Positions 25,702 through 64,000 of a stretch of DNA of 64,000 bases are shown piece by piece. Origin of the DNA: Candidatus Omnitrophota bacterium (GTDB lineage: Bacteria > Omnitrophota > Gorgyraeia > Zapsychrales > Fredricksoniimonadaceae). The translations under genes and the position numbers were made by a program. The stretch covers positions 7,480 through 71,479 of the forward strand of contig CAJARJ010000019.1 of NCBI GenBank assembly GCA_903944345.1, in the 5' to 3' direction. How positions within the stretch are numbered: position 1 is the first letter of the stretch; each line of letters begins with the position of its first letter. The notes under the pieces were generated by a model, which did not search any database, was not told the DNA's origin, and worked only from the letters and a program-made list of their open reading frames with translations.

Positions 25702-25704
25702 GGA

Positions 25705-40219: not shown

Positions 40220-41065
40220 ATGTTAGCGGTCAGTCTGTTTCTGTTTTTTCTTAGCGTGATGATATCTGTTTATTACGTGATTCCTTTTGTTGTTAGAAGG
40301 ATTATTGAGGTCAACAAGAATCGCGCACGCAATTTTGCCCGGGACATGGATCGAACCATGTTAACCCAGGACATTCAAAAAGTTCGGGTTCTTTTTATTA
40401 TCGGACCTTTTGTTTGTGGAGCCGCCGGTTTTTTTCTGGGTGGAGTGATTGGTGTTCTGGTTGGATCAGCGGTCGGTTTTGTGATCCCCAGAACGTATGC
40501 GTCTATCTTGCAGGGTCAGAGACGGGAACAGTTTGAAAAACAACTGGTGGATGCCCTTATGATCATGTCCAGTTCGTTTCGGGGCGGCTTGAGTCTGGTT
40601 CAGTCTATGGAATCGGTAGTTGATGAAATGCCCGATCCTATCCGCCAGGAATTCGGGCTCGTTCTGGGCGAGAACAAGATTGGAGTTCTTTTGGATGACG
40701 CTTTCAATCGACTTTATAAACGTTTGCCGTCACCGCCATTACAGCAAATGATTAGTGCTATTTTGCTGGCACGCGAGACGGGCGGAAATCTGCCGGCTAT
40801 CTTTTCGCGAATTGTGAGCACTATACGTGAACGTCGAAAGATCGAGGATAATCTTAAAGTTCTGACTTTGCAGGGTAAGCTGCAGGCTTTTGTGATGAGC
40901 GGCTTGCCGGTAGGGTTCTTTTTTCTGGTCAATACAACCAATCCCAATTATTTTAAGATCATGACCAATACCGATACGGGGCGCATGCTGTTGGCGGTTT
41001 GTGCGTTTTTATGGGTTCTTGGAACTTTCATGATCATAAAGATCAGTACTATCAAGGAGGTCTGA
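40220..41065 (+). CDS. tadB: Tad pilus inner-membrane platform protein TadB (GspF-like)
   Basis: 281 aa; T2SS-F domain (LYKRLPSPPLQQMISAILLARETGGNLPAIFSRIVSTIRERRKIEDNLKVLTLQGKLQAFVMSGLP). Confidence 0.85.
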   Translation: MLAVSLFLFFLSVMISVYYVIPFVVRRIIEVNKNRARNFARDMDRTMLTQDIQKVRVLFIIGPFVCGAAGFFLGGVIGVLVGSAVGFVIPRTYASILQGQRREQFEKQLVDALMIMSSSFRGGLSLVQSMESVVDEMPDPIRQEFGLVLGENKIGVLLDDAFNRLYKRLPSPPLQQMISAILLARETGGNLPAIFSRIVSTIRERRKIEDNLKVLTLQGKLQAFVMSGLPVGFFFLVNTTNPNYFKIMTNTDTGRMLLAVCAFLWVLGTFMIIKISTIKEV

Positions 41066-41066
41066 C

Positions 41067-41957
41067 GTGCTTCTTCTGAGTTTGATTCTAATCACACTGT
41101 CGGTAACCATTTTGATTTGTGCCTTTCTTCCTGGTTTAAGCGAGTTCCGGCCACAGCCCAAGATCCAGAATTTTGGACAAATGCCGGATTTCTTTGGAAA
41201 GAAAAAGAAACAGGAAGGCAATGACTTTATAAAAGGTTTGGCGCTCTTTAATCGCCCCCTGATTGGCGGCGAGATGCGTTTGCGGCTGGTGAGGGACTTG
41301 TCTATCGCCCAGTTGAATATGACTCCGGAAGAGTTTATGCTGATTAAAGAAATCATGATAGTTGTATTACTTGTTTTTGTTCCCGGTTTCTTTCCGGGAG
41401 ACATGCTTATCTTTGCTGTTTTAATGTCGGTTGCCTTTGGGTATTTCGCTCCGGAGTTCTGGCTTAAAGGAAAGATCAAGAAGGTCAAAGAGGATTTCGT
41501 GCGTTATTTGCCGGACACGGTTGATCTTTTGGGTTTATGCGTTAATGCAGGGCTGGATTTCATGATGGCGCTTAAATGGGTTTCGGAGAAGTCTTCGCCT
41601 AATGTAGTGGTCAATGAAATGAACAGCTTGTTGCAGGAAATTAGTGTTGGTAAGCCCAGGCGGGAGGCGTTACGTGATGCTGCGCGCAAGTACGAATTGG
41701 CGGATCTTTCTACGTTTTCGCGGACATTGATCCAAGCGGATAAAATGGGGACATCGGTGTCTGAAGCGCTCAATATTCTTTCTGAGGATATGCGTCAGGC
41801 GCGCTATCGTCGCGGAGAAGCCATGGCTCTTAAGGCCCCCATCAAGCTTTTGGTTCCGTTGCTTTTCTGTATCTTTCCGGTAGTCGGGATTCTGGTTGGA
41901 GGACCGATTTTTCTTGATTTTATGACCAATAACCCTATGAAAAAGATGGGGATGTAA
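41067..41957 (+). CDS. tadC: Tad pilus inner-membrane platform protein TadC (GspF-like)
   Basis: 296 aa; T2SS-F domain (YLPDTVDLLGLCVNAGLDFMMALKWV...LSTFSRTLIQADKMGTSVSEALNILSEDMRQARYRRGEAMALKAPIKLLVPLLFCIFPVV). Confidence 0.85.
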   Translation: MLLLSLILITLSVTILICAFLPGLSEFRPQPKIQNFGQMPDFFGKKKKQEGNDFIKGLALFNRPLIGGEMRLRLVRDLSIAQLNMTPEEFMLIKEIMIVVLLVFVPGFFPGDMLIFAVLMSVAFGYFAPEFWLKGKIKKVKEDFVRYLPDTVDLLGLCVNAGLDFMMALKWVSEKSSPNVVVNEMNSLLQEISVGKPRREALRDAARKYELADLSTFSRTLIQADKMGTSVSEALNILSEDMRQARYRRGEAMALKAPIKLLVPLLFCIFPVVGILVGGPIFLDFMTNNPMKKMGM

Positions 41958-48400: not shown

Positions 48401-51400
48401 AGGAGTTGATGGCAAGGGAGTTTACGGAATCTCTACTCCTTTGGGAGGGGTGAAGCCTCAGGAGGGAAACTCGACACAGGTTGCCGGTAATGGTCTTGAT
48501 GGTCGCGTGACATTAAGAAGATTTGTTGGTCTTGATGCCAATGGCCAAGCTATTTATATGATGACGCTGGACTCTCAAACTCCTGGACCCAACAGCAATA
48601 TTCAGATTGCGGAAACAGGCAAACAAGCGGTTCCTGATGGTATGCAGGTTAATAATAATCAAGTTAGCTTACAGGCCCCCGCGGTTGGGGTTGGAAACGG
48701 TTTTATTACATTCAAGGAAGATCGCAAGACCGGGCAGGTGACTTTTCAGGATAACAATATGTATTATGCCGTGGATATGGCCAAGAATCAGAACGGCATT
48801 GAGTTGTGGCACAATGATTCGCGGACCCCGGGGGGACAGGTCTTGACTCTTGATCCGCAATATAATGTTGATGGATCGGGCCAATACAATGCGGTTTTGA
48901 AGCAGGGCTCCCAGTTGACAATAGCCGACGGAAGTTATGGAAAGGTTATCGGCAGCTCTTCTGTTGATGGTGAGGGAATGGATTTTCGTCAAGGTATTTT
49001 TGCCGGGGGCAATCTGCATTTTGTTAATAATCTCAAGAGCGGCATTATGAGCTTGTCGGCTGACCCCAACCAGTTTTATATCGATAAAACGGGTGACGGG
49101 ATGGTATTGAATCGTAATGGTCAGTCGATCAACGGAGCTCTTTGGCAGACGAGCAAGAGCGGAGCATCATCTTGGCTGAGTTTTGACAGAGCAGAGTTTG
49201 GCTCGAAAACAGATCCTTCCCTATTCGGAACTCCGGTCAGATTAGGGGTTCCTGATCAGGAAGGCAAGGCCATTGCGGTTAATTCTCCGGAGTTGATCAA
49301 AGTTCAATCTTCGGAAAGTGTGGCAGAGCTGTCCGCGAAAGCAACATATGATGCGGCGCACGCTGAAGTTCAGAAATTGCAAGCGCAATTAAGCCAGCCG
49401 GGGTCGATATTATTCGAGGGAGATGTTCCTGTTGCAAGAGAGGCTGTTGCCGCGCAGTTGGCCAATGCGTTGACAAAAGAAGGCAGCGCTCGAAAGGCTT
49501 ATGCTGTGGCGGCAGAGCAAAGATCAGCAAAAGAAGCAAATGCCAGCGGAAAAGGCGCGGAGACAGAATTTATTAATCAAACCATGGGCGAGAAGGCGCA
49601 AGATCCTGCCGCCCAGGAAACAGCGAGGCTTTATAAGGATGAGGGTAGCGATCAGGTCTGGGCAACCGGAGAGTTGTCTTTTGTTCTCGGAGAGCTCAAT
49701 ACAACAACTCCTGCAGCATGGGGAGTTTTCCGTGGGCAAATGACAGACCAAGAAATAGCAGACAAGACAGGTTTGCAGATCACCCCAGAATTTTCTGCAG
49801 AACGTAAGGCTTTTGAGGACGAACTTGCTAAAAATGGAGAGGTTTCTCAAGAAGACTTTGCCAGAATCGCCCCGCACTGGTCTGAGATATTCAAAGATGA
49901 AACACAAAGAAGAAAACTTGCTTCGGCTGATTCGCATCTTGATCAGTTTGTCAATAACGGCAATGTTACGCCGCTAACGTATATGAACAGCGATTCTTTA
50001 TATACATATGTTAGCGGGAAGTCTTCTGTTGAGGGAATAAAAGACGCCACGGCGGTATATGATAAAAGCGGCCAATTGACGGGTTATACCGACAGAGATG
50101 GTCGCATGGTGACGTTTACAAACGCCATTCCTTTGATCAAGCTGGTTGATCCCACAGGAGAGAAGGTTTACAGCCAGACCGTTCTTTACGGAGGAAGCTT
50201 TAAAGGCGGGGAGAATCGTCAGCTGCTCGAGGGTGCGGTTGCCGGTCAGATGGATTATTTGACGGGATCCGGTTTGAGCAAAGCGCCGCTGGAACAACAG
50301 TTTATTCAACTAAAAGATGGGAAAAGGTTTATTACCCAGATCAAATGGTCAGAACTTGGCATGGATGAAGCTGGGCCCGACCGTCCTTTGGGCTTGGCGG
50401 TAAATGTCAATAATCTTAGTCTTGGTTTGCAAAATCAGTTGCAGGGTAATCTTTCCGGCATCAGCCCTGTCAGCTTGAGCGATCAAGCCAAGGGCATGCT
50501 GGCATATAGAGACAAAGAAGGTCATGAGCGGATTGTCGCATTTCCTGCTATGGAGCGGGGGTCAAATACGGATATCATGTCAACGAACATCATGGCGTTT
50601 AATCCGGGGGATGTTCTCTCTATTAATCATTTTGCTCCCAAATTTGTTAATTTATCGGCAAAAGATGCGCCCTATGATCAGGCTCAGCAGGTTATCAGTA
50701 TTCCTGAAAGTCAACTGAAAGCGGTGAATATAGGGCAAGATTTTTCTTTTCAGGCAGCTCCGCCGAATCTATCAGGAGCCAAATCTGGGACAGTCAACCA
50801 AGGAGCCAATGAAGCCTCTGCGACTTCTGATTCTGTCGAATCGCGTCGGACTCAGATGCAGGGGCAGGACCTGGCTTCGGTTTACGCGATTGATTCCAAA
50901 GGAACCGTAACCGCTGGTCCAGATACAACGCAAGCTATCGAGTTTAACACGGGAGAGAAGCTGATTGGCCGCGTTGGCTTTCAGATAGGAACAATAAATC
51001 AGGGTGGTGTGCCGGTTTTAAGCAAAGAAATACAGTTTGCCGGGCAAGCTCCGGGGTCTGTGGTCGGCTGGAAGGGAACCGATGCAGAGCTGAAGAGTAT
51101 CACGGGAGAGCGGATTGCGCAATTCAAAACACCTGACGGGAAAACAAATGTAACTCCATATATTGGCGGATGGGTTTATAAAGGAGAAGGGCACGTCGAT
51201 TTTTTTGCTGACCGTGGACGAGCTCAGACGGAAATAAGTCAGGGAAAGAGTGTATTAAGAGTAGTTGAGAGTGTTCCGGGGTATCTCATGGTTGTGCCGG
51301 TACAGTATTCTTTTGATTTATCGAAACCAAAGATTGCAGGTAAGGAATTTGTTATTGATGCCAAAACCGGACAAAAGCTTACACAGAGCGTCGGTCAGGT

Positions 51401-54400
51401 TGGTACAGATCACGGTCTTTTTTATGTGACCACGGATAAATTTATTAAGGAATATGAAGGTTTTACTTTTTTTGAAGGACAATCGCTACCCGCTATCAGG
51501 CGTTGGCTTATGAAGGATAATGGGATTGTGGCGGATATCAGAACTCTTTTGGGCAAGCCAAGAGCAGGAATGGATTATCAGGATGCGTATGATTACAGTA
51601 CATTTTCAACCTGGAAAGGGTTGAAAGGTTTGGCTGCGGGGTATGGGGTTGCGCAGTATCTTGGATGGACCGCGGTTTCTGCAGGCATCGGGGGGGCGGT
51701 GGGAGGCTATGCTAACGACTGGGATCGAGCGGCTATATTTGAGGGGACTTTGAACGGAGGAGTGGATGGTGCGGCATTGGGAGGGGTTGTTGGGATCGGG
51801 GGTGGAGTGTTACAGGCTGCCGCAAAAGCAGGCTATGTTCAGAAGCTGCAATCGTTGAGTCCGGCGGTTAAGATGGGAGCCTCTTCGGTTGGCTGGGGGT
51901 CTTATGGTGTTGGTCAGGGGATGTTTAGTAATTATATGGCCGGCAAAGATATTACCGATGGCAACTGGAAAGAGTGGACCAGTCGGTTTGTGATTGGTGC
52001 CGCAACAGGTGCGGCCGGACGCGGGTTATCGGCAACCAGGTCGCCGGCATTGAATGCCGTGGCAGGAAATGTTTATACGAAGAGTCTGGTGACCACTGTT
52101 GCAGGAGGAGCAGCAGCCCGGAGTTTCGAGGAAGGCGGCAAGGGCAATTCGGCCGGAACCTTTTTGTTTGATGTTGGCTCGGGAGTTGTTGGAGCGTTCG
52201 CAATCTCCGGTGCGGGGGTATGGGGCAGATCTATTCTGGGCCAGACAGCAGGGAAAACGGTTTCTGCGCCAGCCTCCTCTGTTTGGTATGACTCTTGGGC
52301 CGCAAGTAGCAATCTCTTTAAGTCCTCTGTCGGCAAGACGACGGCAAAGTCTGTTTCATTAGCTGAGCGCGGAGCCGCGGCTGTTCGTCCCTATACCGCT
52401 CCAGTTGGAAACTTTTTTGATGCCAATCCTGCAGTAAGACAATTTGTAATGCCCTTTTCCGGAAAAAACTACAATACAGCGCTGGGTGAAATACGCGGGC
52501 TTGCCGGGGCAGGAAAGATGTCTTATCTTGAGTATTCCGCAAAAGTTTCGAAGCTCGCAGCCTCCGGAGTTCTTGGCGGATCGACTTGGGGAGGCGTGGC
52601 CGGGTATGCGTTGTCATATGGCAATCCCAATGAGCTCACATCTGAACAACGGATGGGTTATGCGGCTTATGGCGCTTTTGCGGGGGGCGCGTTGGCTCTT
52701 CTGGTTGCCGCTCGTCCGGCTATGCAGAACTGGTCACGAACAACCCCTGAGGGGCGCACTCTGGAGAAGGTGGATATTACAAATTTTACTCCGAATATGG
52801 CCGGACGCATGGCTTTAACGGGGGCAACCGATTTTGCCTTGATGATGCCGGCTTGGAATATTGTGACTGTTCCGGTACACGCTGCGGCAGAAAAACTTCT
52901 TGGAAAGAGCGAAAACTGGAAGGAAGCCTGGAAAAGTTCTGATATCAGATTTCGTACGGGGATGGACGGATCTTTAATAGATCCCACAGACCTGTTAGCT
53001 CGCAAGGCTCCTGGCGATATGTTAAGCGGTGCCCAGATGGGCGTTATGCTGGGACCGACCATGGGGCTTTTACAAAAGCCATTAAGCGCCGTGACCAGAA
53101 ATGAGAACGGTTTCTGGGGCAAGTTCTGGAAAGGTGAAAATCTGGCCGGAAAATTAACACCTTTTGCCGGACATTCGATGCCCAGAACCATTGCGACTTT
53201 GTCTTTTGTCGAGGTAGGAACCGAGCAGGCCATGCATGCCTTTGGACAGGGACGCATTGACCGGTGGGGTCAAGAGGGCATGGCAAAGGTCGAAAAATTA
53301 ATGGCGCTTGATCAGGTGTCGCGAGAGTTGGAATTGCAGCGTTTGGGAGATTCGGGATTAAAGACTTTTTTTGATACAGGAGATTTCTCCGCGGACGCGG
53401 TCAGGAATTATGGTATCAGTTACGCTGAAGGGCAGGTTGCCGCATTAGCCTCGAATGTTGCGTTTGCTTCGCTTTTCTTCAAGCCGACGGCCAGTCCTCG
53501 TCCGGTTGATTATCGTGCCCAGCGTATAGCCGCGGCGAAGGAATTGCGCGCTGCAAGAAAAGAGGTTGAGACGGCAGAAACGGCATGGAGGGCGGCCCCG
53601 ACTGATTCACAAAAGATAACGGCACATGCTGCTGCCATCGGCAAGGTAGAGAGGGCCAAACAGAAAATCTTCAGGGCTAACGCCAGCGAAGCCGCCGTTG
53701 AATTATCTAAATTTCGAACGGGCACCGGGGACGAGGGAAAAGCGGATGGGAAAACAAAAAATGTAGAGGCGATAGAGACCAAGTATAACAAAAGTATTAA
53801 TCTTGCAGAGGCCAGTGCCCGGCGGGCGAGCTGGGCGCAAACGGTTTCGACCTTGGCCGAGAACGGGGTTGTCAAATTTGATATTGATCTGCAAAGTCAG
53901 GCCGACAAGGCTCTGGCGGAAGTTAACAACCGGCAAGCGGAATATAGTCAGAATGCTTCGCCGGAGAATAAGGCGCAGGTTGACAATGCTTTAATAAATT
54001 TTTCGAAGCTTCAGAAGCAAATCAATAGAGCCGAATATGAGGCAAAGGAGATTGTTCTGAAAGCACGGATTAAAAAAGGTGAAGGAGCTGCCCCTTCAGC
54101 GTTGAAGAAGGATGCGCAGAAAGCTCAAGTGGAACTGGCTTTGTTGCCCCTAGAGAGGCTGCTCGCCCCGCGCATCGCCGTCGTTGATCAGCGAATTGCT
54201 ACTAAAAGAGCGCAGAGGGACGGGCTGGTTCGTGAAGGAATAGAGGCAGCCGAACGGGAAACGTCACCTGATAATAAGACGGCTGAAACAAGCGGAAGTA
54301 CCCGTGTTGAACCTCCCGAGAGCGTTGAGACGCCCGCTCAAGCAGCGCTCAGACAAGAGCGAATTCAGGCATTGGATCACGAGATAGCCGTGCAGGAGGG

Positions 54401-57400
54401 AGTTCGTGATCGTTTGGTAACAATGATGGAAAAATGGATCGCGCCTCTTGTTGAAAGTCGTAAACAGGCCGGCGAGACCAGCCCTACCGGTGGCATCAAC
54501 TCAAAGATTGTACGTGAGGCCGTTGAAGATCATCTGGCGAATGATCCACTGGAAAGGTCTCAACTAGAGACAAGCGCCGGGAGGCTGGAAGGTTCCAGCG
54601 GCAAGAAAGTTGAAGCAGGATCCAAAGAATATGGCGAAGCGGTTGAGGCCGCGCAGATTCTGGCGCGGCATAATTTGAGGACAGTCGAGAGACAAAGGGA
54701 CTCCCGCAGCGAAGAGTGGGTCGCAGATGAGCAGCTGCAGCGGGCGCAAAGGGAACTTGCCGAGGTAGAAAAGGAGCTTGGTTCCGCCACAGCTTCTTCT
54801 GCAGACACCAGGGTTGACACGAAAGATTCCGTGCCGCAAACCGCGGATACCGATGTTGTCAAGGCTTTGCAGCAAAGGAAGGCTGACCTGAACACCGAAA
54901 TTTCCCGATTGGAGGCATTTCTTCAAGAAAATTCCTCGTCAGCACAACCAAAAGAGATCGCTCAATTAAAGAGAGAACACAGGCAGGCTGTCGCTGCTGC
55001 CGAGGTAGCCGATAAGCACCGGGCTTTGCACGAGAGTGGTCAGACAGCGGAAAAGGTTTTGAAATCACAGGAGGCCGGCGGCAAAAGATGGTATGCCTCA
55101 GCAGAAGGGTTTGTCAGGAGGCACAAGGCTTTATTGACCCTGGAACAGCGCAAGCTGGCTTCCAAAGAATTGGAGTTGGCGCAAGCAAAGCAGAAGCTTG
55201 AAAATAGCTTGCAGGCACCCGAGCAAGCCGAAACTAAAGAAAAGATCGAGGCTCTGGAGAAAGATGTTTTTAATCTCCAAAAGTTGATGCTGGCTCACGA
55301 GTCCAGACTTGGTTGGGCCGAATTTTTTGCGGGAGCCAGGGCAAAGGGACAAATTAATCCATTAGAGTTTTTAAGCCTCAAGGGAAAAATAGAACGAATT
55401 GAGCATGATCCCAGTTATTCCAGAGAGCAGGCCGAAGATCTGGCGAGCAAAAAGCAGGAACTGGATAAGTTCGAGGCGACAGTAAAGGCTTTGGAGGCTG
55501 CGAAAGAGTCCTATGAAAAGGGGGAGAATGTCGATGCTGCTGCCAGTCTGCAGAAAGCGGCGGAAAATGATCCTGGATTAAGGGAGGTTTTTCCGGAATT
55601 ATTCAAGACAAGCAAGCCATCCGCTCCCGAACAGTCCGAAGCGGTTGAACAGCCAAAGCCGGCAGAGGCGGAAGCTTCCAGACAGCAAGCTACGCCAGCC
55701 CAACAGCAGCAGGCCCGTCCACAGGGAGATTTGGCAGCCAGGCAAAAAGAACAGGCGGCTCAGCTGGAAGCAATGCGTCAGCGGCAAGCTTCCAGTTCCG
55801 GAAAAACGTCGGTTGCCGCAGAAAAGCCGACGGCGGAGAAACCCGAAGCCCCGGCAAAAGTTGAGCTGTCCGAAAGTGTATCTGAATCTGTCAGAGCGGA
55901 AGGTCAGTCGAAGGAAACAATTGAGCTTCCTGAAAATATTCCATGGTCACAAGTCCAGCAGAATGTTCTTGAACGGATGGCACAAGTTGCTGGCCTTAAA
56001 GAAGGTTCGACATTGGAAGGAAGCAAAGACAGGCTGGACAAGGATATAGCCGGGCATACACAATCGGTGGGGACTCATTATGATCTTGCTCTCAGGCAGT
56101 ATGAAGTCGAGATAGCTGGCAATAAAGCACTGACTACGGGTGAAAGAAAAGCTCGCTTGGACCTTGTCAGAAGCGAGCTGGCGTTTCAGCGCGAGCATAT
56201 GCTTCGTCTGTTTCAGGCAGAACGAACGCCTTTGGAGGAGGCGCGATTTGAAGCATCCGAGTACAAGCTTGATGTGCAGGCCGCGAAATGGGAGCTGAAC
56301 AGGCCGCAGGATATTCATTTGAGCGGGGAGGGACACCTCTCTGCCTTCGATCAAATGCGGGATGAAGCCAGGACGGAGTTGGACAAGATTGATGTGCCCG
56401 ACTTGTCGGCACTGTTAGAGCACCGGGCCGCCCCCAGGGTTATTACCAGAAGAATGGTTGGAGCAAAAGGACTGGACTGGAAGAAATTCGTGGATGCTCT
56501 GCCCCAAGAAGGTGTTGAGCGCGATGCTCATCAAACTGATCAGGTCACGCTAACAAAAGATTTTGATAGAACCAAGACGGGCGGCTACCTTAAAGGCAAA
56601 GATGCCGCAGAGGTTGTTTTGAATAGAAGTCTTGATCCGAAAGAGGTTGAAGTTAAAGTTGAACAGACATTAAACCGCTTAAGAGAAGTGAAGGAACGGG
56701 TTGCGGCCATGAGAGTGGTCGGTGACATGGTTCGTGAAATGGCCGATGCCCGTGAGCTGAAAGGGACAGCGCTGTATCTTGTGAAAGCCGCCGAAGCCAC
56801 CGCAGTCCGGATTGATCTGAGAAAAAGATACGACAATCTGTTTCTTGAATTGAGGGATGATTACCGCATTCCTTTGAAGGATTTGACGCCAGAACAGCAG
56901 TTGGCGGTGGTAAAGTTCAATAAATATGTTTTTGGTGAATCCGGTGATTATCTGACACCAAAAGAATTCGTTGGGAGGGTGAGGGATGTACAAGAATCAG
57001 TTTTGTCCATTTTGCAGGACCAAGCTAAGGGGTTCGGGGAAGGTGCGGAAAATATAGTTGGCGAATTAAGCAGGATTGAAGCAAGAATTCAAGAGGTTGG
57101 AAACGAAATTGATTTGGCCTATTCCCTGGCGGTTTTGTCGCACGCAAGGACGGATAAGTCGGCGACTCCGGCGATAGAAGATCTTTTGCGTCAGGTGGAA
57201 CACTCCAAAGATGTGCCGATTGATCAGCAAACAATAGACAACATCAAGGAGCAGGCGGGGAGCATTCTTCCTTCTGCCAAAGAGGTAGCTGTTTCGACAG
57301 AGAAAGAGCCCTTTGCCAAACGAGCTCTCGACTATCTTGGCCAGGGTTCGCAACAGCAGAAAGACCAGGCGATTTTTGCCGTAACCAAACGGCTGACAAC

Positions 57401-60400
57401 GCTGGAGAAAACGGTCGAGACAGCCCAGGAACGTTCCCGTTTGCGCCGAGACCTGGAGCCTTTGCGTCGGGCGGTTACGGTCTTGCAGACCCAGGAATAT
57501 ATCCGGCACGATATATTTAGAAAGCTTGAGGCTGCGCGCACGAATAATTCAACTCGGGAACAGGAGATTGACCTGATTGAACGTGAAGCTAAGCGCATGA
57601 CGTATATTGACACGGATGTTTTTCGCTCCCTTGAAATGGGTCGTCCGGGGGAGCGCGCTTTTATGGATTATCTGATGTTGACGGAGTTGTTTAGAAATCC
57701 CGAGATCAAGACCCCGAAAGAGTTGGAAGCAGCATTGAAAAAGAAACTTAGTGGCGATGAGAATCTCAAACCGGATAGGATTGAGCAGGAATTGACACAA
57801 GGGGACAATCAAAATCGCCTGCAGATCACGTTAGATGTATTCAACCAGCATAAAAACACTGCTCCGATTAAAGCCCTCAATCAGATGCTAAAAGATTTGA
57901 ACAGAACGCATACTTCGGTGACAGATGGTTTCAGATCCGCCTTGAGCAGACGGGAGGGGTTGAGCCCGGAGGGTGAAGCGGGCAATATCGTAGATAAGAG
58001 GATTCGAGAAGCTCAGGAACAGATAGAGAGTATGTTGGAAATTATGTATGCCAAAGATTTTGAACTCGACAGAGGGGCCGAGATTACCGAGACGCTGCGA
58101 ACAGATAATAGTGGTGTAACCGAAATGAAACGCCGCTTTGTGATGGCGGAAGGTATTGCCCAGCAGGCTATTGGCTTGCCCGGAACGGTGGTGGTCAAGG
58201 GTACGGGAGGTGGTAAAACGCTTATTCAGCTCATGGGAGTGGAGTTAAGTCATATTGTCAGTGGACGCCAGGGGGCCACCACGACCATCATCACGCCTGA
58301 ACCGGCTAATATGATTGATTACATGAAAAGAGTCAATGAATTGTATGGTAAGGCAAAAGGACAGGGGGAGACAGATCACAAGACCAGATATTTTGCCGTT
58401 TCTGAAGGCAAGGTTTATCGTTTTGATGGAGAAAATGGTGTCAATAAGGATGGCTGGAAGCTTGTCACCAGAGGTGGCAAGCCTGTGGAGGCGCGGGAAT
58501 TCGAAATGACAGACAAGAAGGAGGGAGAATCTGCGGTTGTTATGATGACCTCCCGCGATGCTTATGATATGCGGATTCAGCCCGATTCCAAGGGGTATGA
58601 GTTCTTGAAATCTATGAAAGAGGGAAAGAACGAAGTTATTATGGATGATATTCAGGAAATGACCCGCGGTTCGGGGCTTGTTCTGGGTGGAGCTTATTCT
58701 GTAAAGGAACTGATTGCCAATGGCGGGCGGGCGGAAGCTGATGAAATTAGGGGGGCGGCCCAGATGGCTGCGCAGGTTTATAATTTAACAAAAAACTATT
58801 TATCCGAACGTTCCCTGAGTACTGCATTTGAGCGGGTGGATGCTCAACTGGTTGACCATATCAAGTCGCAGGTTTTTGGAAATGGGGTCGGTCGGCTTCC
58901 TTATTCCGAAACGTCCGAGAAACGCGTTTATGAGTTTATTGATGCGGCCTGGCGGCATTTCCGTCGGGTCAAAGGCAGCGATTATCATGAAGTTGTTGTG
59001 GATGAGAAAACAAAAAGCACGGCTTATGTTGTCAGGGTCAAGGATGTCCGCGGCGAAAGAGGAGTAGAGTTGACCTGGGAAGGCGAAAATCATCAGGGCC
59101 CCAGAACCCAGAGATTTGAGAAAGAAGAGGATTTCTACAGTTTTCTGAAGCAGAACGCCGAAGCCATGACTTTGGGGTATTCCAAGGGGTTTGTTCTGGC
59201 TGATCGGTCAGTGGCCACCAAGGATCATATTTTTCATGATCCGGCAGACGCGGCCATTTGTTCAGTTGCGGTGGGAGCTGACCTGCGGGTTACTGCTGAT
59301 TATCTGGTGCGGCCCAAGAAAGCCTTGTCGGCTGATATTTTCAAGGTTGCCTCTCTGGTCGGGGCGGAACGGATAACGTTTTATAGCGCGTCTCCGGATC
59401 TTGATGCTATCAAGGAGATGGGGCTGGATGTCACCTTTTCTCGGGATGGAGGAATGCGTCAACGGGGCGATCTGGTTCTGGTGGGCAGAGCTCCGGAACT
59501 AAAACAGGGGCAGTTGGAATTTCGTTATGGCCGCGGCCGCGAGATGCTGACGGAAGCGGTGCAACAGATTGTGCGTGATATTCGTGCGGACCCGTTTACT
59601 GTCCAAAGAAGAGCGGGCGAACGCGTAGTTGCCGTCAAGGTAGGGGTTCTGGTTCTGGATCGCGCGGATTATGCCCATGAGGCCAGGGAGGCGGCTCTTG
59701 CCGCCACACGGCATGATCCTTACCAGCATGTGGTTGAAGTGACTTTTACAGGAGACCGGAAACAAAGCATAATTGCCGCGCAGGCCAGGTTGCAGGAAGT
59801 GGCTGCCGGGTATTTTACGAAAGACATGTTTGAACGCGTTGGCCCCAAGGATCAAACCTGGGAGCAGTTCGTGGAAGACTGTCTTGGTAAGAATATAATT
59901 TTGCGTGATCCGGACAAGGTGGATCCGAACACGCGCGCGAACACGGAAACGCTGCAAGACTTTGTGACGGCTGGCAAGATTCGTTTTACTACCGATGCCG
60001 CCACGCATCCCAAAGTGTCCCGGGAGATCCAGACCATTATTGAGAAGTCTTCAAAGCAGAAGATCATTGTTGTCCTTCCCAAATTTGAAGCCGGTTCGAA
60101 TCTGCTGGAGTTTTTCTCTGACAAAGGAGAGCGGATCCTTTTTGGCGCTTCTATCCGTCATGTCGGGCGCATGGAAGACAGCACGTTTTACCTTCAGCTG
60201 GTCGGACGCGGAACTGATAATTACAAAGAAACAGAGACCAATCGCGCTTACTTGTTGGGTGGTAAAATGACCACTTATGTGGACACCGCACGTATGTCGG
60301 CCACGCAGCGGGAGGCGTTTAGGGCGGCAGAGAATAAGGAAGAGAAGCTCTGGGAGCTGGCGCATACCTATGAGCGTGAGCTGGGCGTGCAGGCCGCTCA

Positions 60401-63400
60401 CCGGGCCAGATATTCCCTGTTGGATCTAAAGCTCGATGGTTATGGCCTCGAAACCAAATTAAGCGATACCGAACGTAATCAGCAGGCTCATTACGACAAG
60501 ATCATTCTGGAAAAAGGAGAAATGTATCGCGGCTTTTCCAGTTTCTATCTTCCGGAAAGAAATACGCAGTCTGTTCGCTGGTCTGTGCTTGACCGGATGG
60601 ATCTGGCAGAAGAAGGAGTTTCTTACAGAGCCTGGCAGGACTCGTTTCGCCCCTTCCGGGAAACACAGTCGGGCACACAGCTTGTGCGGGAACTGGTTTC
60701 CCAGCAGGCCGTGTCTTCCGAGGATCTGGACCGGTTGATGTTCACCCGCGATCAGAGCGGGCGTATTACAGACTCTCCTGTTTTCGAGATCGGGCGTAAC
60801 GGCGGCTTGACCGGTAATACGACGATGGTTGGAACCGTGGCCATGCGTATTTTACAGGATGAGCATCATGGCGGTCAGCCAGCCACCCGCAACGATCTGG
60901 AGGGCATACTCAACCGGGCGCGCCAGGAAGTGACCAGCTACATTTCTGCCGGAGCCAAGCTGGAGCAGGGAACAGATGGCGAGCTCATGTGGGTCAAGCG
61001 GGATGACGAGGGTCTTTATATGGACGTTATTCCGGCCGGAACAAAAAGATATAAGGTGAACGCTGCCGATACGCAGGAGTTTCAGGTGGTGGAGCGTTAT
61101 AATTACAATCCTGCCGGTCAGGGAGCGTATTGGGCAAAAAGTTTCCTGGCTTTGCCCTCGGGCGCTCCAGCCCAGGGACTGACGGTGCACGGAACAATAA
61201 TTCCTGACGGAGCGCAGGTGGACCAGAGTGGACAGTATGTCTTGACACAGAATTTTTCTCATCCTGACCAGCCGAATGTTCTGGCTTTGCTGGTGAACGG
61301 GCAGATGATCGTCAAGGAAAAAGGAGAGCTCTCCAAAGAGGATGTGGAGGCGGCCGGAGGAGATTGGGAGCAGATCAAAGAAAAGTTGACCCAGGCCAAA
61401 GAGCGGCTGGCCGACATTAAAGAGGATACGATCATATTTGATTCTGCTGTGACGGCAGAAAAAGCGCAGGCACTGCTTTTGGATATGTCCGCAACACAAC
61501 CGCTTCGGCGAGTGATTCAAGCGGCTGTTGAAGGTTATTATCAGCTAAATGCGCATTTGCCCCGCGAACGGCTGGCGGCGATTGTTGGGGAGAATAACGT
61601 TGGTGTTTTGGAAACCGCTTTGCAGCAAGCGGGTCTTGTTGATGCGGCGGGAACTGTGCAGGAGAAGAAAAAAGTAGTACTTGAAAAAGACGAACCTGCG
61701 CAGTCATGGACGGCCCTGATGCCCTCCCGGATGCCTTCCAGAGTAAACACGGCAGAAGATGAGAAAGACAGGGCACAGAAAGCTGAAAAGAGAGCCCGCG
61801 ATCTGGCTGTAGCTTTAAACTTGCCCAGGAGCTACCACGAGCATGCTTTGGCCATTCTGGAAAGCCTGAGAGATTCTTTGGAAATAGATATTCCTTTGCG
61901 GCAGTTTGTTTCGGGCACAGAGCGCCTGCAAGCTCCGGATGGAATTGTGCGTTTGTCGGCTGAAACTATGGACAGACGCGTTATTGACGTCTCTCTTCAG
62001 AGTCAGACGGCTCGCCGTGAAGGACAGCTGCGTCAGCAGGCTGGCGAGCGGGGAGACTTGGATGCTGTTCGGGCGCACACCAGAAATATCAACCGGTCGC
62101 TTGCCGGAATTCTGAAGTATCGCGCCGGACTTTCTTTGGCCCCTACGGTGACGAAAGAAATCTTCAAGGATATCAAGGATGCGGCTGTTAATAAAGATGC
62201 ATTGATTCAGGCATTGAGAGCTGCCGGGTATATTGATGACAAAGGCTTTTTAAAAGATGACAGTTTCTTTGCTGTGAAAACTGCGGCAGATCTGAATATT
62301 GGCCTTGATCTGAAAGATGAAGACAAGGACAAGGTCTTTGAGGCGCTGGTCAAGGCGGAAACAATCCGTATTAATATTGATCGTGGTTTGTCACGTTCAG
62401 AATATACGCTGGAAGATTTTGACGGAAAACAGGAGAAGGCACAGGCTTTACTGGATCAAATTCGCAGGGATTCCAGTATTAGCGCTCCGACTCCGCAAGA
62501 CGGCCATCCCGCTGAAGATCCGGTAGCGGCGCTTAATCAGTTGTTGTCTGACCAGACAGGATCTGCGTTCTTGCCCCAAAAGGATTCTGTCACTCCTCTG
62601 GAAGTCCGCCGGGCCATCAAGGCTAAATATGAAAAACTGGCTCCCGAGGATCGCGATCTGGGCCAGGATAAAGATGAGCTGACCATTCGTCTTTTGCGTA
62701 CGCTGGGGAGCAAAGTTCGTGATGTAAAAGGTGATCTTGTCCCCTTGTCCCAAATTCGTCAGCTGGAAATGGATTTTTCCCTGCTGGATGACGGCCAGGC
62801 GGCGCAGGCCACAAATTCTTCGATCAAGCTGGGCCTTGATGCGTTTCTCACCGCGCTGGCGGACAATAACAAGTCCGGTTTCCGTTTTGTTCGTCACGAA
62901 GGTATGCACGTCTGGGATCGCAATCTCTCCCGGCATAAACTGGAGGCCCGGCGAATTGCGGGCAAAGTGGATGTCATCCCCCGTTCGGCACGCATACGGT
63001 TTGAGGATTATAAAGTTTTTCAGACAGACACTCTGCGTGCCAGATTGAATGAAAACAAGGTTGGAATTTTGAGTGATCCTTTTGCTTTTATCAGGGACAT
63101 GGAAACGCTGGGCTATGTCAGGAAAGAAAAGGATCATTACATTAAGACCGACAAGTTCTACCAGGAAACCAACGGAATGGTTTTTAAGAAACTTCCCGGG
63201 TATGACACGCAGGAACAGCGCAAGTTTGTTTTTGAGCTTCTTAATAATGGAGAAGAAATCGGTATATATGACAAGGATTTTGCTCTTGGCGAAGTCTTTA
63301 CCCAGAGAAAGGAAGGCAGGGATTATCTGCAGGAATTGTCCCGGGCCATGGAGCAGGGAGATATGCAGGAGGTTCGGCGGATGTCTGCCATTGTGGAAGA

Positions 63401-64000
63401 CAATTTCCAGCGCTCGCGTGAAATGGCTTATCGTTTTTATGGCGGGTATCAGAAATTCTTGTCACAGTTGAAGGGGGAAACAAGGCAGGCCGACTGGAAA
63501 GTGGAAGCGGAAACAGGTTCAGGAGAAAATATTCTGCTTGTTCCGGTTACGGAGCACGCATCTTTGCGGATTCCGGTTGGAAACAAGACACTCGAAGATA
63601 TAAATTCGCCGGCGAATCGGGAGAATCTCCAAACACTTGTACAAAACGAGCTTGTGGAACTGGAGCATTTAACGGCGGAAATGGATGCCTATTTGCAGTT
63701 GGCCAAGAAGCATGCCACAGATCGCTTCCTGTACACTGTTTTAAACCGGGCCAGGTTGTCAAAGAATCTTGACCAAACCGTTCCGGTGGCCGGGGAAAAA
63801 GACGCTTCATCGACCTTTAAACTGCGGATCGTTGCCGGTATTTTAAGTTCGGATTTTATGAAAAAGGAAGCCGCTACCAAGGATGGAAAAGCGGTAACGA
63901 TTTATTCCAACCCGAAAACCGGCTGGCGTATGCATGTGGATCAGAAGACCGGATTGATTCACAGGTTTGACAGAACGCCAGGGGTTTCCGAGGATGCCGT
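42444..64000 (+). CDS. Giant multidomain protein, N-terminal >=7,185 aa (ORF still open at the window end)
   Basis: ATG at 42444 preceded by GGAG (42433-42436) and an in-frame TGA at 42429. The codon frame with starts at positions congruent to 0 mod 3 is open to 64000: hand-checked at 47400, 49980, 54960, 60000, 63960, with protein-like sequence throughout. The ORF track shows no plus-strand ORF in this frame because there is no in-window stop. Recognisable parts: TM helix FWIRAVSVILICIFL; C39-like Cys/His motifs (NCGVYAL ... HFVTVLRIEGDTVYLNDIGNPG); Gly/Ala-rich hydrophobic modules; ~1,400-aa coiled coil; SecA-like ATPase (KGTGGGKT, VIMDDIQEMTRGSGLVLGG, LVGRGTD..LLGG). Confidence 0.85.
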   Translation, partial: MDKQLDSKTVESFSTVAAAEAPISVYAEGGFRSRFNFWIRAVSVILICIFLPDQIGWAFNYNPAVIYPQNALNYQPAPVLTSAERSSAQIAGSVGFLLNQVKGLEQARFELKLNPANALQLAKELKQPVLAIDSRRSFNELAISEITQWLAEPQVHILNCGVYALKDLLDFEGISKTPEELSVITILADLLSDVLRTGDERLKTSLFALSQAMDAFGLEYQAVKLRPENLRLLATPFIAHFKDEHFVTVLRIEGDTVYLNDIGNPGQMSISELAQRASGFALAREMKFFVKAGFERVAQNTQTFVWGDKWRNKSDELPGLVSNSQIAMQVGIQVVGALAAAWMGPGGWAAYATFSMSMAASSFAQAVGQVCQMRGGSGQSCMLLSTAISVGLTMGTSALLSAGQAAGTQAAGQALAKDGVTNASAQVSQETVNKAASEAAGAISRSGEIATQEAITSSVTKAFANQGIAVSGELGAKISAAAAANVTAKVAEASASTMASTFAAGFAQGAIIGVAKGAVEYQVVKMIDKALGDDDYILKSTVQAIASSVAGAMVGSIVQWGISNAVTAYNESSAANTDTETAAASTDTSATSTQAATTATDSAMIRLTKLDGGFNPYDLGKNSLGTVLSRTLMDRSLLAGVVGHLAAMGVRYAVSGGAVTQEEEGDLSVVLGQLGNTFGQMAGNFAMGQSKIGYDNRTPEQTVKDAKDWTALFKQAIPKAVVSAGLTYALLAMEESVIGDDDGSHSYKEKQMAFRNTAFMISGVMTGLALGLAAEYAHQDADSPVGATTSSVVEDGRLEAGYKTGYWQQQKEFQMDFWGLGAMQTLTNEMGGTPYSLNAGLAAGQLTSTMQGLTGFTPQTAWQIDKMWLATKKANSELSADNRESNSVLKLRHRIAIFDIIDPGMINIDYVNSQFSAGVVSNVIATGEIAASATFARGSIDGQQYLTDWGFQWRPAITRDIVTPDGKPTGRALVFMGATNDVNRLLDFRGVENLGLSRETDPKTGKVRESLTGTYTKEYAHATGLDKAMAGIDDLTRELNSAGVNGISAERLQAALAKNGLKGAVVSSGPDGSQKVLVDVDGKTVSLDASLLQQAGLIAPAGVDKNGKLQWKFNAGSAPGSVFSNRNAKGTVFSFSGAEVVADTSSPVYFLHKIAGLPGAPVDWARSTQPENVWKNYTVDLGARNAAMTNNPGTTFSAQQINQPGGASQSVFSLELDYAGNSGNPLQMASGYRGIKKNRAGEADRKTLSFDLTAQANPDGSAVFGERRNLSIAGLVIEPGNKSVMDLAFTSMNNVGGNNLRYNVTGVNTVTGEVFDLARFKKAFEAGIRKQEQIGLLDLFLPQMSGKTAAAWLSVMATSQALGQLTPGITAPVLMNMGIRQKGSALPEASLVSSIDGKINPLQLNTYTADGQVKDVLRVTARNTPLLQLAAGGGANNFLGNVHNVSRTFLNNHLPMGSADRFGYYYAAGTPSVGKGGGKVTQYDSQLLPMFSGDEVGLEGWLREGTVARISDGKKKGSYKGKILSDFFLVNPLDPAAGELVRLVGEIGITRAGHGQTLTAEEGKTIKNFALQQAPEGIVAVIDNNGLSPFLERAVLAYPHKGAFSPEQGGQVGDITLTTNQTGHALSKYPKLGFVFHDKAGWQLLPEQSSSSTTKDRYRRGDGAIMERLFKRTIRIFGRQTITQKDGSVTGSTIDPAISKRKVSDTGWVQMGERMIAPPPAPKPVARAAGGSGDGSQKVGAEIEYTEQSLDTAAREQVAKAKKDQGIDVPPTEQEVAAAKKSILAELNSSESVEGGGTKGEWMRFRLQQSAARKSAAAFEQGGEDNEALLAEQEAASEAGSGVFSGLDKPVTEKSLERKVKAQQTNDNTVHLKPDQGAMGSYLTGAVGAPKAEELYPEVKGSGEQTAKTGSQWKKAKTEQVSLAIEANGVVTPGAITFEATTYLGRKGAAGQAAEQINVCVQTNCKAVETPYQAAYDAKTGQWLLTGVDGKGVYGISTPLGGVKPQEGNSTQVAGNGLDGRVTLRRFVGLDANGQAIYMMTLDSQTPGPNSNIQIAETGKQAVPDGMQVNNNQVSLQAPAVGVGNGFITFKEDRKTGQVTFQDNNMYYAVDMAKNQNGIELWHNDSRTPGGQVLTLDPQYNVDGSGQYNAVLKQGSQLTIADGSYGKVIGSSSVDGEGMDFRQGIFAGGNLHFVNNLKSGIMSLSADPNQFYIDKTGDGMVLNRNGQSINGALWQTSKSGASSWLSFDRAEFGSKTDPSLFGTPVRLGVPDQEGKAIAVNSPELIKVQSSESVAELSAKATYDAAHAEVQKLQAQLSQPGSILFEGDVPVAREAVAAQLANALTKEGSARKAYAVAAEQRSAKEANASGKGAETEFINQTMGEKAQDPAAQETARLYKDEGSDQVWATGELSFVLGELNTTTPAAWGVFRGQMTDQEIADKTGLQITPEFSAERKAFEDELAKNGEVSQEDFARIAPHWSEIFKDETQRRKLASADSHLDQFVNNGNVTPLTYMNSDSLYTYVSGKSSVEGIKDATAVYDKSGQLTGYTDRDGRMVTFTNAIPLIKLVDPTGEKVYSQTVLYGGSFKGGENRQLLEGAVAGQMDYLTGSGLSKAPLEQQFIQLKDGKRFITQIKWSELGMDEAGPDRPLGLAVNVNNLSLGLQNQLQGNLSGISPVSLSDQAKGMLAYRDKEGHERIVAFPAMERGSNTDIMSTNIMAFNPGDVLSINHFAPKFVNLSAKDAPYDQAQQVISIPESQLKAVNIGQDFSFQAAPPNLSGAKSGTVNQGANEASATSDSVESRRTQMQGQDLASVYAIDSKGTVTAGPDTTQAIEFNTGEKLIGRVGFQIGTINQGGVPVLSKEIQFAGQAPGSVVGWKGTDAELKSITGERIAQFKTPDGKTNVTPYIGGWVYKGEGHVDFFADRGRAQTEISQGKSVLRVVESVPGYLMVVPVQYSFDLSKPKIAGKEFVIDAKTGQKLTQSVGQVGTDHGLFYVTTDKFIKEYEGFTFFEGQSLPAIRRWLMKDNGIVADIRTLLGKPRAGMDYQDAYDYSTFSTWKGLKGLAAGYGVAQYLGWTAVSAGIGGAVGGYANDWDRAAIFEGTLNGGVDGAALGGVVGIGGGVLQAAAKAGYVQKLQSLSPAVKMGASSVGWGSYGVGQGMFSNYMAGKDITDGNWKEWTSRFVIGAATGAAGRGLSATRSPALNAVAGNVYTKSLVTTVAGGAAARSFEEGGKGNSAGTFLFDVGSGVVGAFAISGAGVWGRSILGQTAGKTVSAPASSVWYDSWAASSNLFKSSVGKTTAKSVSLAERGAAAVRPYTAPVGNFFDANPAVRQFVMPFSGKNYNTALGEIRGLAGAGKMSYLEYSAKVSKLAASGVLGGSTWGGVAGYALSYGNPNELTSEQRMGYAAYGAFAGGALALLVAARPAMQNWSRTTPEGRTLEKVDITNFTPNMAGRMALTGATDFALMMPAWNIVTVPVHAAAEKLLGKSENWKEAWKSSDIRFRTGMDGSLIDPTDLLARKAPGDMLSGAQMGVMLGPTMGLLQKPLSAVTRNENGFWGKFWKGENLAGKLTPFAGHSMPRTIATLSFVEVGTEQAMHAFGQGRIDRWGQEGMAKVEKLMALDQVSRELELQRLGDSGLKTFFDTGDFSADAVRNYGISYAEGQVAALASNVAFASLFFKPTASPRPVDYRAQRIAAAKELRAARKEVETAETAWRAAPTDSQKITAHAAAIGKVERAKQKIFRANASEAAVELSKFRTGTGDEGKADGKTKNVEAIETKYNKSINLAEASARRASWAQTVSTLAENGVVKFDIDLQSQADKALAEVNNRQAEYSQNASPENKAQVDNALINFSKLQKQINRAEYEAKEIVLKARIKKGEGAAPSALKKDAQKAQVELALLPLERLLAPRIAVVDQRIATKRAQRDGLVREGIEAAERETSPDNKTAETSGSTRVEPPESVETPAQAALRQERIQALDHEIAVQEGVRDRLVTMMEKWIAPLVESRKQAGETSPTGGINSKIVREAVEDHLANDPLERSQLETSAGRLEGSSGKKVEAGSKEYGEAVEAAQILARHNLRTVERQRDSRSEEWVADEQLQRAQRELAEVEKELGSATASSADTRVDTKDSVPQTADTDVVKALQQRKADLNTEISRLEAFLQENSSSAQPKEIAQLKREHRQAVAAAEVADKHRALHESGQTAEKVLKSQEAGGKRWYASAEGFVRRHKALLTLEQRKLASKELELAQAKQKLENSLQAPEQAETKEKIEALEKDVFNLQKLMLAHESRLGWAEFFAGARAKGQINPLEFLSLKGKIERIEHDPSYSREQAEDLASKKQELDKFEATVKALEAAKESYEKGENVDAAASLQKAAENDPGLREVFPELFKTSKPSAPEQSEAVEQPKPAEAEASRQQATPAQQQQARPQGDLAARQKEQAAQLEAMRQRQASSSGKTSVAAEKPTAEKPEAPAKVELSESVSESVRAEGQSKETIELPENIPWSQVQQNVLERMAQVAGLKEGSTLEGSKDRLDKDIAGHTQSVGTHYDLALRQYEVEIAGNKALTTGERKARLDLVRSELAFQREHMLRLFQAERTPLEEARFEASEYKLDVQAAKWELNRPQDIHLSGEGHLSAFDQMRDEARTELDKIDVPDLSALLEHRAAPRVITRRMVGAKGLDWKKFVDALPQEGVERDAHQTDQVTLTKDFDRTKTGGYLKGKDAAEVVLNRSLDPKEVEVKVEQTLNRLREVKERVAAMRVVGDMVREMADARELKGTALYLVKAAEATAVRIDLRKRYDNLFLELRDDYRIPLKDLTPEQQLAVVKFNKYVFGESGDYLTPKEFVGRVRDVQESVLSILQDQAKGFGEGAENIVGELSRIEARIQEVGNEIDLAYSLAVLSHARTDKSATPAIEDLLRQVEHSKDVPIDQQTIDNIKEQAGSILPSAKEVAVSTEKEPFAKRALDYLGQGSQQQKDQAIFAVTKRLTTLEKTVETAQERSRLRRDLEPLRRAVTVLQTQEYIRHDIFRKLEAARTNNSTREQEIDLIEREAKRMTYIDTDVFRSLEMGRPGERAFMDYLMLTELFRNPEIKTPKELEAALKKKLSGDENLKPDRIEQELTQGDNQNRLQITLDVFNQHKNTAPIKALNQMLKDLNRTHTSVTDGFRSALSRREGLSPEGEAGNIVDKRIREAQEQIESMLEIMYAKDFELDRGAEITETLRTDNSGVTEMKRRFVMAEGIAQQAIGLPGTVVVKGTGGGKTLIQLMGVELSHIVSGRQGATTTIITPEPANMIDYMKRVNELYGKAKGQGETDHKTRYFAVSEGKVYRFDGENGVNKDGWKLVTRGGKPVEAREFEMTDKKEGESAVVMMTSRDAYDMRIQPDSKGYEFLKSMKEGKNEVIMDDIQEMTRGSGLVLGGAYSVKELIANGGRAEADEIRGAAQMAAQVYNLTKNYLSERSLSTAFERVDAQLVDHIKSQVFGNGVGRLPYSETSEKRVYEFIDAAWRHFRRVKGSDYHEVVVDEKTKSTAYVVRVKDVRGERGVELTWEGENHQGPRTQRFEKEEDFYSFLKQNAEAMTLGYSKGFVLADRSVATKDHIFHDPADAAICSVAVGADLRVTADYLVRPKKALSADIFKVASLVGAERITFYSASPDLDAIKEMGLDVTFSRDGGMRQRGDLVLVGRAPELKQGQLEFRYGRGREMLTEAVQQIVRDIRADPFTVQRRAGERVVAVKVGVLVLDRADYAHEAREAALAATRHDPYQHVVEVTFTGDRKQSIIAAQARLQEVAAGYFTKDMFERVGPKDQTWEQFVEDCLGKNIILRDPDKVDPNTRANTETLQDFVTAGKIRFTTDAATHPKVSREIQTIIEKSSKQKIIVVLPKFEAGSNLLEFFSDKGERILFGASIRHVGRMEDSTFYLQLVGRGTDNYKETETNRAYLLGGKMTTYVDTARMSATQREAFRAAENKEEKLWELAHTYERELGVQAAHRARYSLLDLKLDGYGLETKLSDTERNQQAHYDKIILEKGEMYRGFSSFYLPERNTQSVRWSVLDRMDLAEEGVSYRAWQDSFRPFRETQSGTQLVRELVSQQAVSSEDLDRLMFTRDQSGRITDSPVFEIGRNGGLTGNTTMVGTVAMRILQDEHHGGQPATRNDLEGILNRARQEVTSYISAGAKLEQGTDGELMWVKRDDEGLYMDVIPAGTKRYKVNAADTQEFQVVERYNYNPAGQGAYWAKSFLALPSGAPAQGLTVHGTIIPDGAQVDQSGQYVLTQNFSHPDQPNVLALLVNGQMIVKEKGELSKEDVEAAGGDWEQIKEKLTQAKERLADIKEDTIIFDSAVTAEKAQALLLDMSATQPLRRVIQAAVEGYYQLNAHLPRERLAAIVGENNVGVLETALQQAGLVDAAGTVQEKKKVVLEKDEPAQSWTALMPSRMPSRVNTAEDEKDRAQKAEKRARDLAVALNLPRSYHEHALAILESLRDSLEIDIPLRQFVSGTERLQAPDGIVRLSAETMDRRVIDVSLQSQTARREGQLRQQAGERGDLDAVRAHTRNINRSLAGILKYRAGLSLAPTVTKEIFKDIKDAAVNKDALIQALRAAGYIDDKGFLKDDSFFAVKTAADLNIGLDLKDEDKDKVFEALVKAETIRINIDRGLSRSEYTLEDFDGKQEKAQALLDQIRRDSSISAPTPQDGHPAEDPVAALNQLLSDQTGSAFLPQKDSVTPLEVRRAIKAKYEKLAPEDRDLGQDKDELTIRLLRTLGSKVRDVKGDLVPLSQIRQLEMDFSLLDDGQAAQATNSSIKLGLDAFLTALADNNKSGFRFVRHEGMHVWDRNLSRHKLEARRIAGKVDVIPRSARIRFEDYKVFQTDTLRARLNENKVGILSDPFAFIRDMETLGYVRKEKDHYIKTDKFYQETNGMVFKKLPGYDTQEQRKFVFELLNNGEEIGIYDKDFALGEVFTQRKEGRDYLQELSRAMEQGDMQEVRRMSAIVEDNFQRSREMAYRFYGGYQKFLSQLKGETRQADWKVEAETGSGENILLVPVTEHASLRIPVGNKTLEDINSPANRENLQTLVQNELVELEHLTAEMDAYLQLAKKHATDRFLYTVLNRARLSKNLDQTVPVAGEKDASSTFKLRIVAGILSSDFMKKEAATKDGKAVTIYSNPKTGWRMHVDQKTGLIHRFDRTPGVSEDA

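Follow-up and report, generated by a model that had tools for sequence, protein, structure and literature searches.

A stretch of 64,000 nucleotides (nt) from Candidatus Omnitrophota bacterium (GenBank assembly GCA_903944345.1, contig CAJARJ010000019.1, positions 7,480 to 71,479 of the forward strand), hereafter the window, was analyzed for an ATPase-like module carried by a giant open reading frame (ORF). The module, at amino acids (aa) ~5235-5945 of the frame (nt ~58130-60263), is probably a genuine, very divergent superfamily 2 (SF2; DEAD/ResIII-type, helicase-like) two-lobe ATPase, a reading to which a probability of roughly 0.62 was assigned and which is based on motifs, their order, their conservation and family-level matches to SF2 helicases. 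The initial annotation of this region had described a SecA-like DEAD-motor ATPase. A P-loop, DEAD-type two-lobe module in the giant protein was upheld by the motifs, their order and their conservation; the likeness to SecA was not, since no SecA profile matched, DEAD-box and DinG profiles outscored that of SecA, and the arginine equivalent to SecA R509 is absent.

Amino acid numbers of the giant protein refer to the frame counted from nt 42432, where the frame opens; the protein comprises at least 7189 aa from that point and at least 7185 aa from the first ATG (42444). The ORF and the features of the module are as follows.

42444..63998, plus strand: giant ORF; the frame is open from 42432 and runs past the end of the window
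57984..61316 (frame aa 5185-6295), plus strand: block conserved with giant ORFs L002 and L003 (phmmer), comprising the SF2 module and ~330 aa downstream
58194..58223, plus strand: motif I / Walker A, VKGTGGGKTL (Lys aa 5262, Thr 5263), aligned by hhalign to motif I of SecA, DinG, RhlE, RecQ and UvrB
58284..58304, plus strand: motif Ia, TIITPEP, aligned with the motif Ia region of DinG, RhlE and XPB
58536..58553, plus strand: motif Ib-like strand, VVMMTS (hhhMS across the family), aligned to RhlE 'vlv~t~grl'
58635..58661, plus strand: motif II / Walker B, VIMDDIQEM, aligned to RhlE DEAD, UvrB and RapA DExH, and DinG DE
58662..59369, plus strand: insertion of ~240 aa between motifs II and III, from the alignment and predicted secondary structure
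59175..59324, plus strand: most conserved block in the family alignment, DFVLAE.GNT.KDHIFHS..DAAV..I.VGAD....DYL.RPE.A., inside the II-III insert
59379..59402, plus strand: motif III, FYSASPDL (SAT in relatives), aligned to SAT of RhlE and DinG
59466..60263, plus strand: lobe 2, the predicted second RecA-like domain, from alignments and predicted secondary structure
60069..60107, plus strand: motif V, VVLPKFEAGSNLL (family consensus PRFDAGLNL), aligned to E. coli DinG VLVGLQSFAEGLDL
60189..60260, plus strand: motif VI, YLQLVGRGTDN (60189-60221) followed by NRAYLLG (60240-60260), aligned by hhalign to QxxGR of DinG, UvrB, RecQ and RhlE and to SecA motif VI

The full SF2 motif set (I, Ia, Ib, II, III, V and VI) was thus present in canonical order and, within lobe 2, at canonical distances. 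The peptides VKGTGGGKTL, VIMDDIQEM, YLQLVGRGTDN and NRAYLLG, on which the initial annotation had relied, were all located in the giant frame at their listed coordinates, and LVLVGRAPELKQ was found in frame at 59472-59507. Two motif assignments were revised: LVLVGR, previously taken as motif IV, is the first strand of lobe 2, and LQLVGRGTD, previously likened to SecA motif V (MAGRGTD), is motif VI (QxxGR) and was aligned by hhalign to SecA NQLRGRSGRQG. An AlphaFold2 (AF2) model of the module had a predicted local distance difference test (pLDDT) score of ~41 overall and of 50-80 in lobe 1, where a strand, the P-loop, a helix and the Ia strand led on to the strand bearing the DD, with Walker A itself modeled as strand, loop and helix. 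The elements of lobe 2 follow in the order entry strand (GDVVVIG/QVxF), helix, strand VxVxVVV (at the motif IV position), helix, strand VxITG, helix, strand and motif V, strand ANIRxVG, and motif VI helix; judged from the alignments and the AF2 secondary structure, the succession of strands and helices from motif III onward would match canonical SF2 domain 2. LAEKGNT, brought forward as motif III by a greedy hhalign alignment to SecA LAGMTGT, was rejected, because SAT and the canonical lobe 2 topology fit better and the DEAD and DinG blocks land on SAT. Some 85 extra residues lie between the IV-V helices of lobe 2 (~59750-60010, module residues ~553-640), and all relatives are without them.

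The insert between motifs II and III consists of a helical part, a part with four strands and a helix (TWEG), and the conserved block, in that order, and it contains no Pfam match. Its center (~58980-59170, module residues 296-356), which includes the four strands and helix and a conserved KWEG ... GY..DF pattern, gave weak Foldseek matches to the PARP1 WGR domain (E 0.04-0.5) from an unreliable model, and no WGR match was found there by Pfam.

Chance origin of the motif set is excluded. TGxGK[ST] occurs once in 7189 aa, and one occurrence is held by ~2.6% of composition-preserving shuffles; the ordered I-II-III-VI chain with helicase-like spacing was found in 0 of 3000 shuffles. An exhaustive phmmer search over 1.84 billion representative proteins returned four relatives, namely P0001 (5689 aa, E 7.7e-88), which is identical to locus L003 from an Omnitrophota metagenome-assembled genome (MAG), and three metagenome fragments, P0002-P0004. 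A pattern taken from the most conserved block (59175..59324) was used to scan GTDB genomes and recovered L003 and, from a second Omnitrophota MAG, L002, the whole 20-kb locus of which is one open frame. A cluster look-up added P0005, a 2375-aa protein with the complete module. All relatives with taxonomic placement belong to Omnitrophota MAGs. Word-indexed homolog searches with single-sequence and alignment queries, a scan of genome contigs with the single module protein, and a scan of metagenome contigs with the family alignment returned nothing, and no internal repeats of the module were found in the giant protein. The relatives are only 26-34% identical overall, yet they retain the motif residues KGTGGGK[TS] (I), hhhTP (Ia), hhhMS (Ib), hhxDD (II), SAT (III), PRFDAGLN (V) and Q[LF]xGR (VI); because these are kept at such low identity, the blocks are real and under purifying selection.

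Between the giants, conservation is almost confined to the SF2 module and one downstream block (frame aa 6761-7182), and both therefore offer good experimental handles on proteins that are otherwise unrelated. The downstream block (62712-63977) is strongly conserved; its counterparts in L002 (aa 4082-4499) and L003 (aa 3576-3981) score ~145 in phmmer, and neither Pfam nor NCBIfam has a match there. Downstream of the module, the P0001/L003 ORF also encodes a domain of the GNAT acetyltransferase type (2.5e-14) and, as a second P-loop, the DEAH-like GETGTGKS (E 0.0015 with Pfam DEAD), at L003:~12700-13030 and ~15870-16150. P0005 (L024:10001-17128) has in addition an N-terminal hydrophobic segment and a DUF4347 / His-Cys (possibly caspase-like) region. 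Its neighbors are genes for a 2234-aa unannotated protein and for TraD-like, HTH_36, phage-integrase, HEPN/NTP_transf_2 and PemK proteins, a context that is that of a mobile element and neither a Tad locus nor one of secretion. The SF2 family is common to Omnitrophota giants and one mobile-element protein.

Profile libraries were searched with the window, the four relatives, the family consensus, the L002 and L003 ORFs, and P0005; for all of these, the SecA_DEAD and P-loop_SecA scans were run at E<=1-10. Lobe 1 of P0005 passed PF00270 DEAD (27.9 bits against a cut-off of 26, E 2.2e-6), fell narrowly below the cut-off of ResIII (PF04851; E 1.4e-4, 22.3 bits against 22.5), and matched the PHROG DNA helicase (6.5e-4) and PADLOC PbeA (1.9e-6) profiles; the window module itself matched PADLOC DpdF weakly (0.004). 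Neither DEAD_2 nor Helicase_C_2 was matched by P0005 in Pfam, Helicase_C (PF00271) was matched by no family member, and the family consensus had no Pfam match. Against Protein Data Bank (PDB) sequences, phmmer with the window module returned nothing, and the family profile returned sub-threshold SF2 helicases only (XPB 0.16; Hel308 0.41 with P0005 lobe 1 alone) and no SecA. A hidden Markov model search with SecA_DEAD, SecA_PP_bind and SecA_SW had been proposed in the initial annotation, where assignment to another P-loop family was named as what would speak against SecA. In Pfam and NCBIfam, SecA_DEAD (PF07517), P-loop_SecA (PF21090), SecA_PP_bind (PF01043) and SecA_SW gave no match in the window, the relatives or the family consensus, even at permissive E-values, and SecA_SW (PF07516; helical scaffold/wing) was likewise unmatched after lobe 2 in nt 57600-63998. 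The positive control, a diverged giant protein of the SecA-like type encoded on a Megaera plasmid, scored 3.2e-37. The SecA reading therefore fails by that measure, because P0005 was assigned to DEAD/ResIII, DNA helicase and PbeA.

Profile-profile comparisons were performed using hhalign against a 10-sequence profile of the SecA nucleotide-binding domains (NBDs), an 8-sequence DinG profile and a two-sequence RhlE/RhlB profile, with sequences taken from plasmid and E. coli collections. The family profile including P0005 matched RhlE/RhlB from motif I through motif II (probability 82%, E 1.1e-5) and DinG over motifs I-Ia, with motif II colinear (E 3.8e-4), and SecA (E 5.8e-3) ranked behind both. 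The single-sequence controls RhlE (0.002) and RecQ (0.003) beat every single SecA (0.02 or worse), and comparison of the module with the single E. coli SecA by BLASTP and hhalign gave nothing. The family blocks landed on the true motifs I, II, III and VI of DEAD-box proteins, I, III, V and VI of DinG, and I, II and VI of UvrB, as well as on those of RecQ and RapA. The module shares with generic SF2 DEAD/ResIII helicases (PF00270, PF04851; E. coli RhlE/RhlB, archaeal XPB, PADLOC PbeA, DpdF) the order of motifs I (TGxGKT), Ia (TP), Ib, II, III (SAT), V and VI (QxxGR) and the predicted order of strands and helices in lobe 2, and its best profile-profile match is to this group. It differs from them in the ~240-aa II-III insert, the DD of Walker B, the missing second arginine of motif VI, and its position near aa 5200 within a giant protein (at least 7189 aa).

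Several observations weigh against this assignment. The window module reached no threshold in Pfam or NCBIfam. Walker B is DD rather than DE in 4 of the 4 members that cover motif II, and the second arginine of motif VI, equivalent to E. coli SecA R577, is replaced by D/S/K/W in the family although Q..GR is kept throughout, so that the catalytic competence of the predicted ATPase is unproven. The II-III insert occupies the position of the SecA preprotein cross-linking domain (PPXD), and colinear matches to the SecA profile were obtained at motif VI (1.3e-3 for the motif VI block alone) and at the linker between lobes 1 and 2. Most full-length Omnitrophota giants, moreover, carry divergent SecA_DEAD and preprotein-binding domains (West-Roberts et al. 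2023, bioRxiv 10.1101/2023.11.21.568195).

[quoted passage not shown] The published SecA domains of giant proteins, found in Omnitrophota and actinobacterial representatives, are themselves described as extremely diverged and are also without scaffold/wing, and they occur in the same class of host protein and the same setting, with an N-terminal C39 domain and a type II secretion system (T2SS)-like locus containing a Rotamase_2 peptidyl-prolyl isomerase (PPIase) (West-Roberts et al. 2023); an architecture cluster of 20 SecA_DEAD proteins has also been reported (Nielsen and Lui 2026, bioRxiv 10.64898/2026.06.07.730766). The initial annotation had not recognized such an architecture, which both studies had already recorded. 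With the SecA profile, weak local matches were colinear at motif I (E 0.0059), motif VI with RAYL/RFYL (E 0.036; (K/S)R(A/F)YL in the two families) and the lobe linker PTNRP..R.D (E 0.62), and the large insert lies exactly between motifs II and III, as in SecA. The blocks of this insert had no match in the SecA profile. However, the alignment of block II to SecA was out of register, and a large insert at this place is also present in DinG (in the E. coli protein, DEGH at 248 and SAT at 459). XPD helicases, like DinG, carry a large insert between motifs II and III. The arginine finger and motif VI of SecA, proposed earlier as a check, gave a divided result: the arginine at the position of R509 (E. 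coli numbering, checked against the alignment) is absent from the family motif V (PRFDAG[SLM]N), whereas QLxGR is kept, a pattern that block-wise hhalign showed to be generic to SF2. The absent arginine, together with the DEAD and DinG profiles scoring above SecA, the missing SecA matches set beside the control, the assignment of P0005 to DEAD/ResIII and its mobile-element context, makes a SecA origin unlikely.

The DinG score raises the question of whether the module belongs to the XPD/DinG (Rad3-like) lineage, with the Fe-S cluster lost and an Arch-like II-III insert. The motif I block alone matched the DinG profile with E 3.9e-5, the motif III, V and VI blocks landed on its SAT, FAEGLD and QQVGR, the I-II, Ia-II and II-III distances are similar, and SATxxxL...G(L) at motif III and a motif V resembling F(A/D)(E/A)GL(D/N)L are common to both. 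This placement is nonetheless quite improbable: 0 Cys occur between motifs Ia and II (frame aa 5283-5405), hence no Fe-S cluster, Pfam places P0005 in DEAD/ResIII and not in DEAD_2 or Helicase_C_2, and the DEAD-box pair outscores DinG. The slimmest chance was given to a decayed or non-catalytic SF2 relic serving only as a structural or binding domain. The DD of Walker B, the missing motif V and second motif VI arginines, and the scarcity of relatives (4 matches among 1.84 billion representatives) would suit such a relic, but relatives at ~30% identity keep every one of Walker A Lys/Thr, DD, SAT and Q..GR, and apart from the module little is conserved between giants that are otherwise unrelated.

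For the favored divergent SF2 ATPase, a working model of fold, activity, substrate and topology can be proposed. In lobe 1, K5262/T5263 of Walker A and D5405/D5406 of Walker B would hold ATP between the lobes, and R5926 of motif VI in lobe 2 would act as its sensor. Hydrolysis and the closing of the lobes would be linked through motif III (SAS/SAT), and repeated ATP cycles would drive the module step by step along a linear polymer, over which the ~240-aa insert would most likely form a clamp or arch. The C-terminal half of the protein, which is charged and contains the module, is predicted to be cytoplasmic, tethered to the membrane by the upstream hydrophobic segments, and situated beside the Tad/T2SS-like machine encoded upstream. 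DNA or RNA would be the default substrate, because the closest detectable relatives are nucleic-acid helicases and P0005 stands in a mobile-element context; polypeptide threading is the main alternative. The helicase-type signal would imply a role directed at nucleic acids rather than protein export. A further proposal, put forward very tentatively, is that the module founds an SF2 family that has had no name so far and is confined to very large proteins of Omnitrophota and mobile elements, in which the conserved insert adapts a helicase-type motor to a non-canonical job, for example threading the giant protein or its cleavage products to the Tad-like machine, or, once delivered, acting on the nucleic acid of prey or a recipient.

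The novelty of these results is modest and consists of an SF2 family that has very few members, is very divergent, keeps a conserved insert between motifs II and III, is missed by Pfam in the window sequence and is not demonstrably SecA. The C39 N-terminus, the upstream Tad/T2SS-like locus and SecA-like domains in Omnitrophota giants were known from published work. Giant Omnitrophota proteins are mostly unannotated, and the present case cautions against labeling such P-loop modules 'SecA-like' from motif resemblance alone.

Outside the module, the following features were identified in the N-terminal part of the giant protein.

42546..42602 (frame aa 39-57), plus strand: N-terminal hydrophobic segment, a predicted signal anchor (Kyte-Doolittle scan)
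43044..43289, plus strand: Peptidase C39-like domain near the N-terminus (Pfam PF03412, E 3.3e-9)

The Peptidase_C39 domain directly follows the hydrophobic segment and is the sole Pfam domain of the giant ORF. The N-terminal half, which is rich in Gly, contains a single, sub-threshold RHS/YD-repeat match at 50058-50120 (Pfam E 0.011; NCBIfam E 0.047). The composition of the protein shifts at ~aa 3500 from Gly/Ala-rich to Glu/Lys/Arg-rich, with Gly falling from 15% to 6%. The shift is preceded by two hydrophobic segments (~52150-52700, frame aa ~3245-3430) that are weak and rich in Gly/Ala. This position may be an outside/inside boundary, and the compositional change is consistent with a protein whose N-terminal half is extracytoplasmic and whose C-terminal half, with the putative ATPase, is cytoplasmic, a topology suggested by sequence features.

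The window covers the region around the replication origin of a bacterial chromosome. parB/parA and yidC lie on the minus strand and are followed on the plus strand by dnaA, dnaN, gyrB and gyrA (14660-22479), which are within ~25 kb of the giant gene and the Tad-like locus, and the GC skew changes sign at ~nt 15000. From the proximity of dnaA-gyrA and the skew switch it follows that the giant locus adjoins the replication origin and is co-oriented with replication. The origin genes are followed by genes for malate dehydrogenase, a Rotamase_2 PPIase, RcpC/CpaB, a secretin fused to TonB_C and a CpaE-like/CpaF-like fusion, then by several unannotated ORFs and two GspF/TadB-C-like genes, and finally by the giant ORF. 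Omnitrophota giant genes are reported to have an N-terminal C39 domain and an upstream T2SS/Tad-like cluster including rcpC and a Rotamase_2 PPIase (West-Roberts et al. 2023). The window locus is of this published type, since it combines a very long ORF, signal anchor and C39 domain with upstream Rotamase_2 PPIase, RcpC, secretin, GspE-like and GspF-like genes, as found for 'Archaeovorin'-like giant proteins. The secretion locus upstream of the giant ORF occupies 23813-29571 and 40220-41957. The Rotamase_2 PPIase and RcpC genes, which match the published conserved locus, stand upstream of two unusual fusion genes, of which one encodes a secretin with a C-terminal TonB_C domain (25705-27378) and the other a 724-aa fusion of a ParA/CpaE-like NTPase with a T2SSE/CpaF ATPase (27397-29571).

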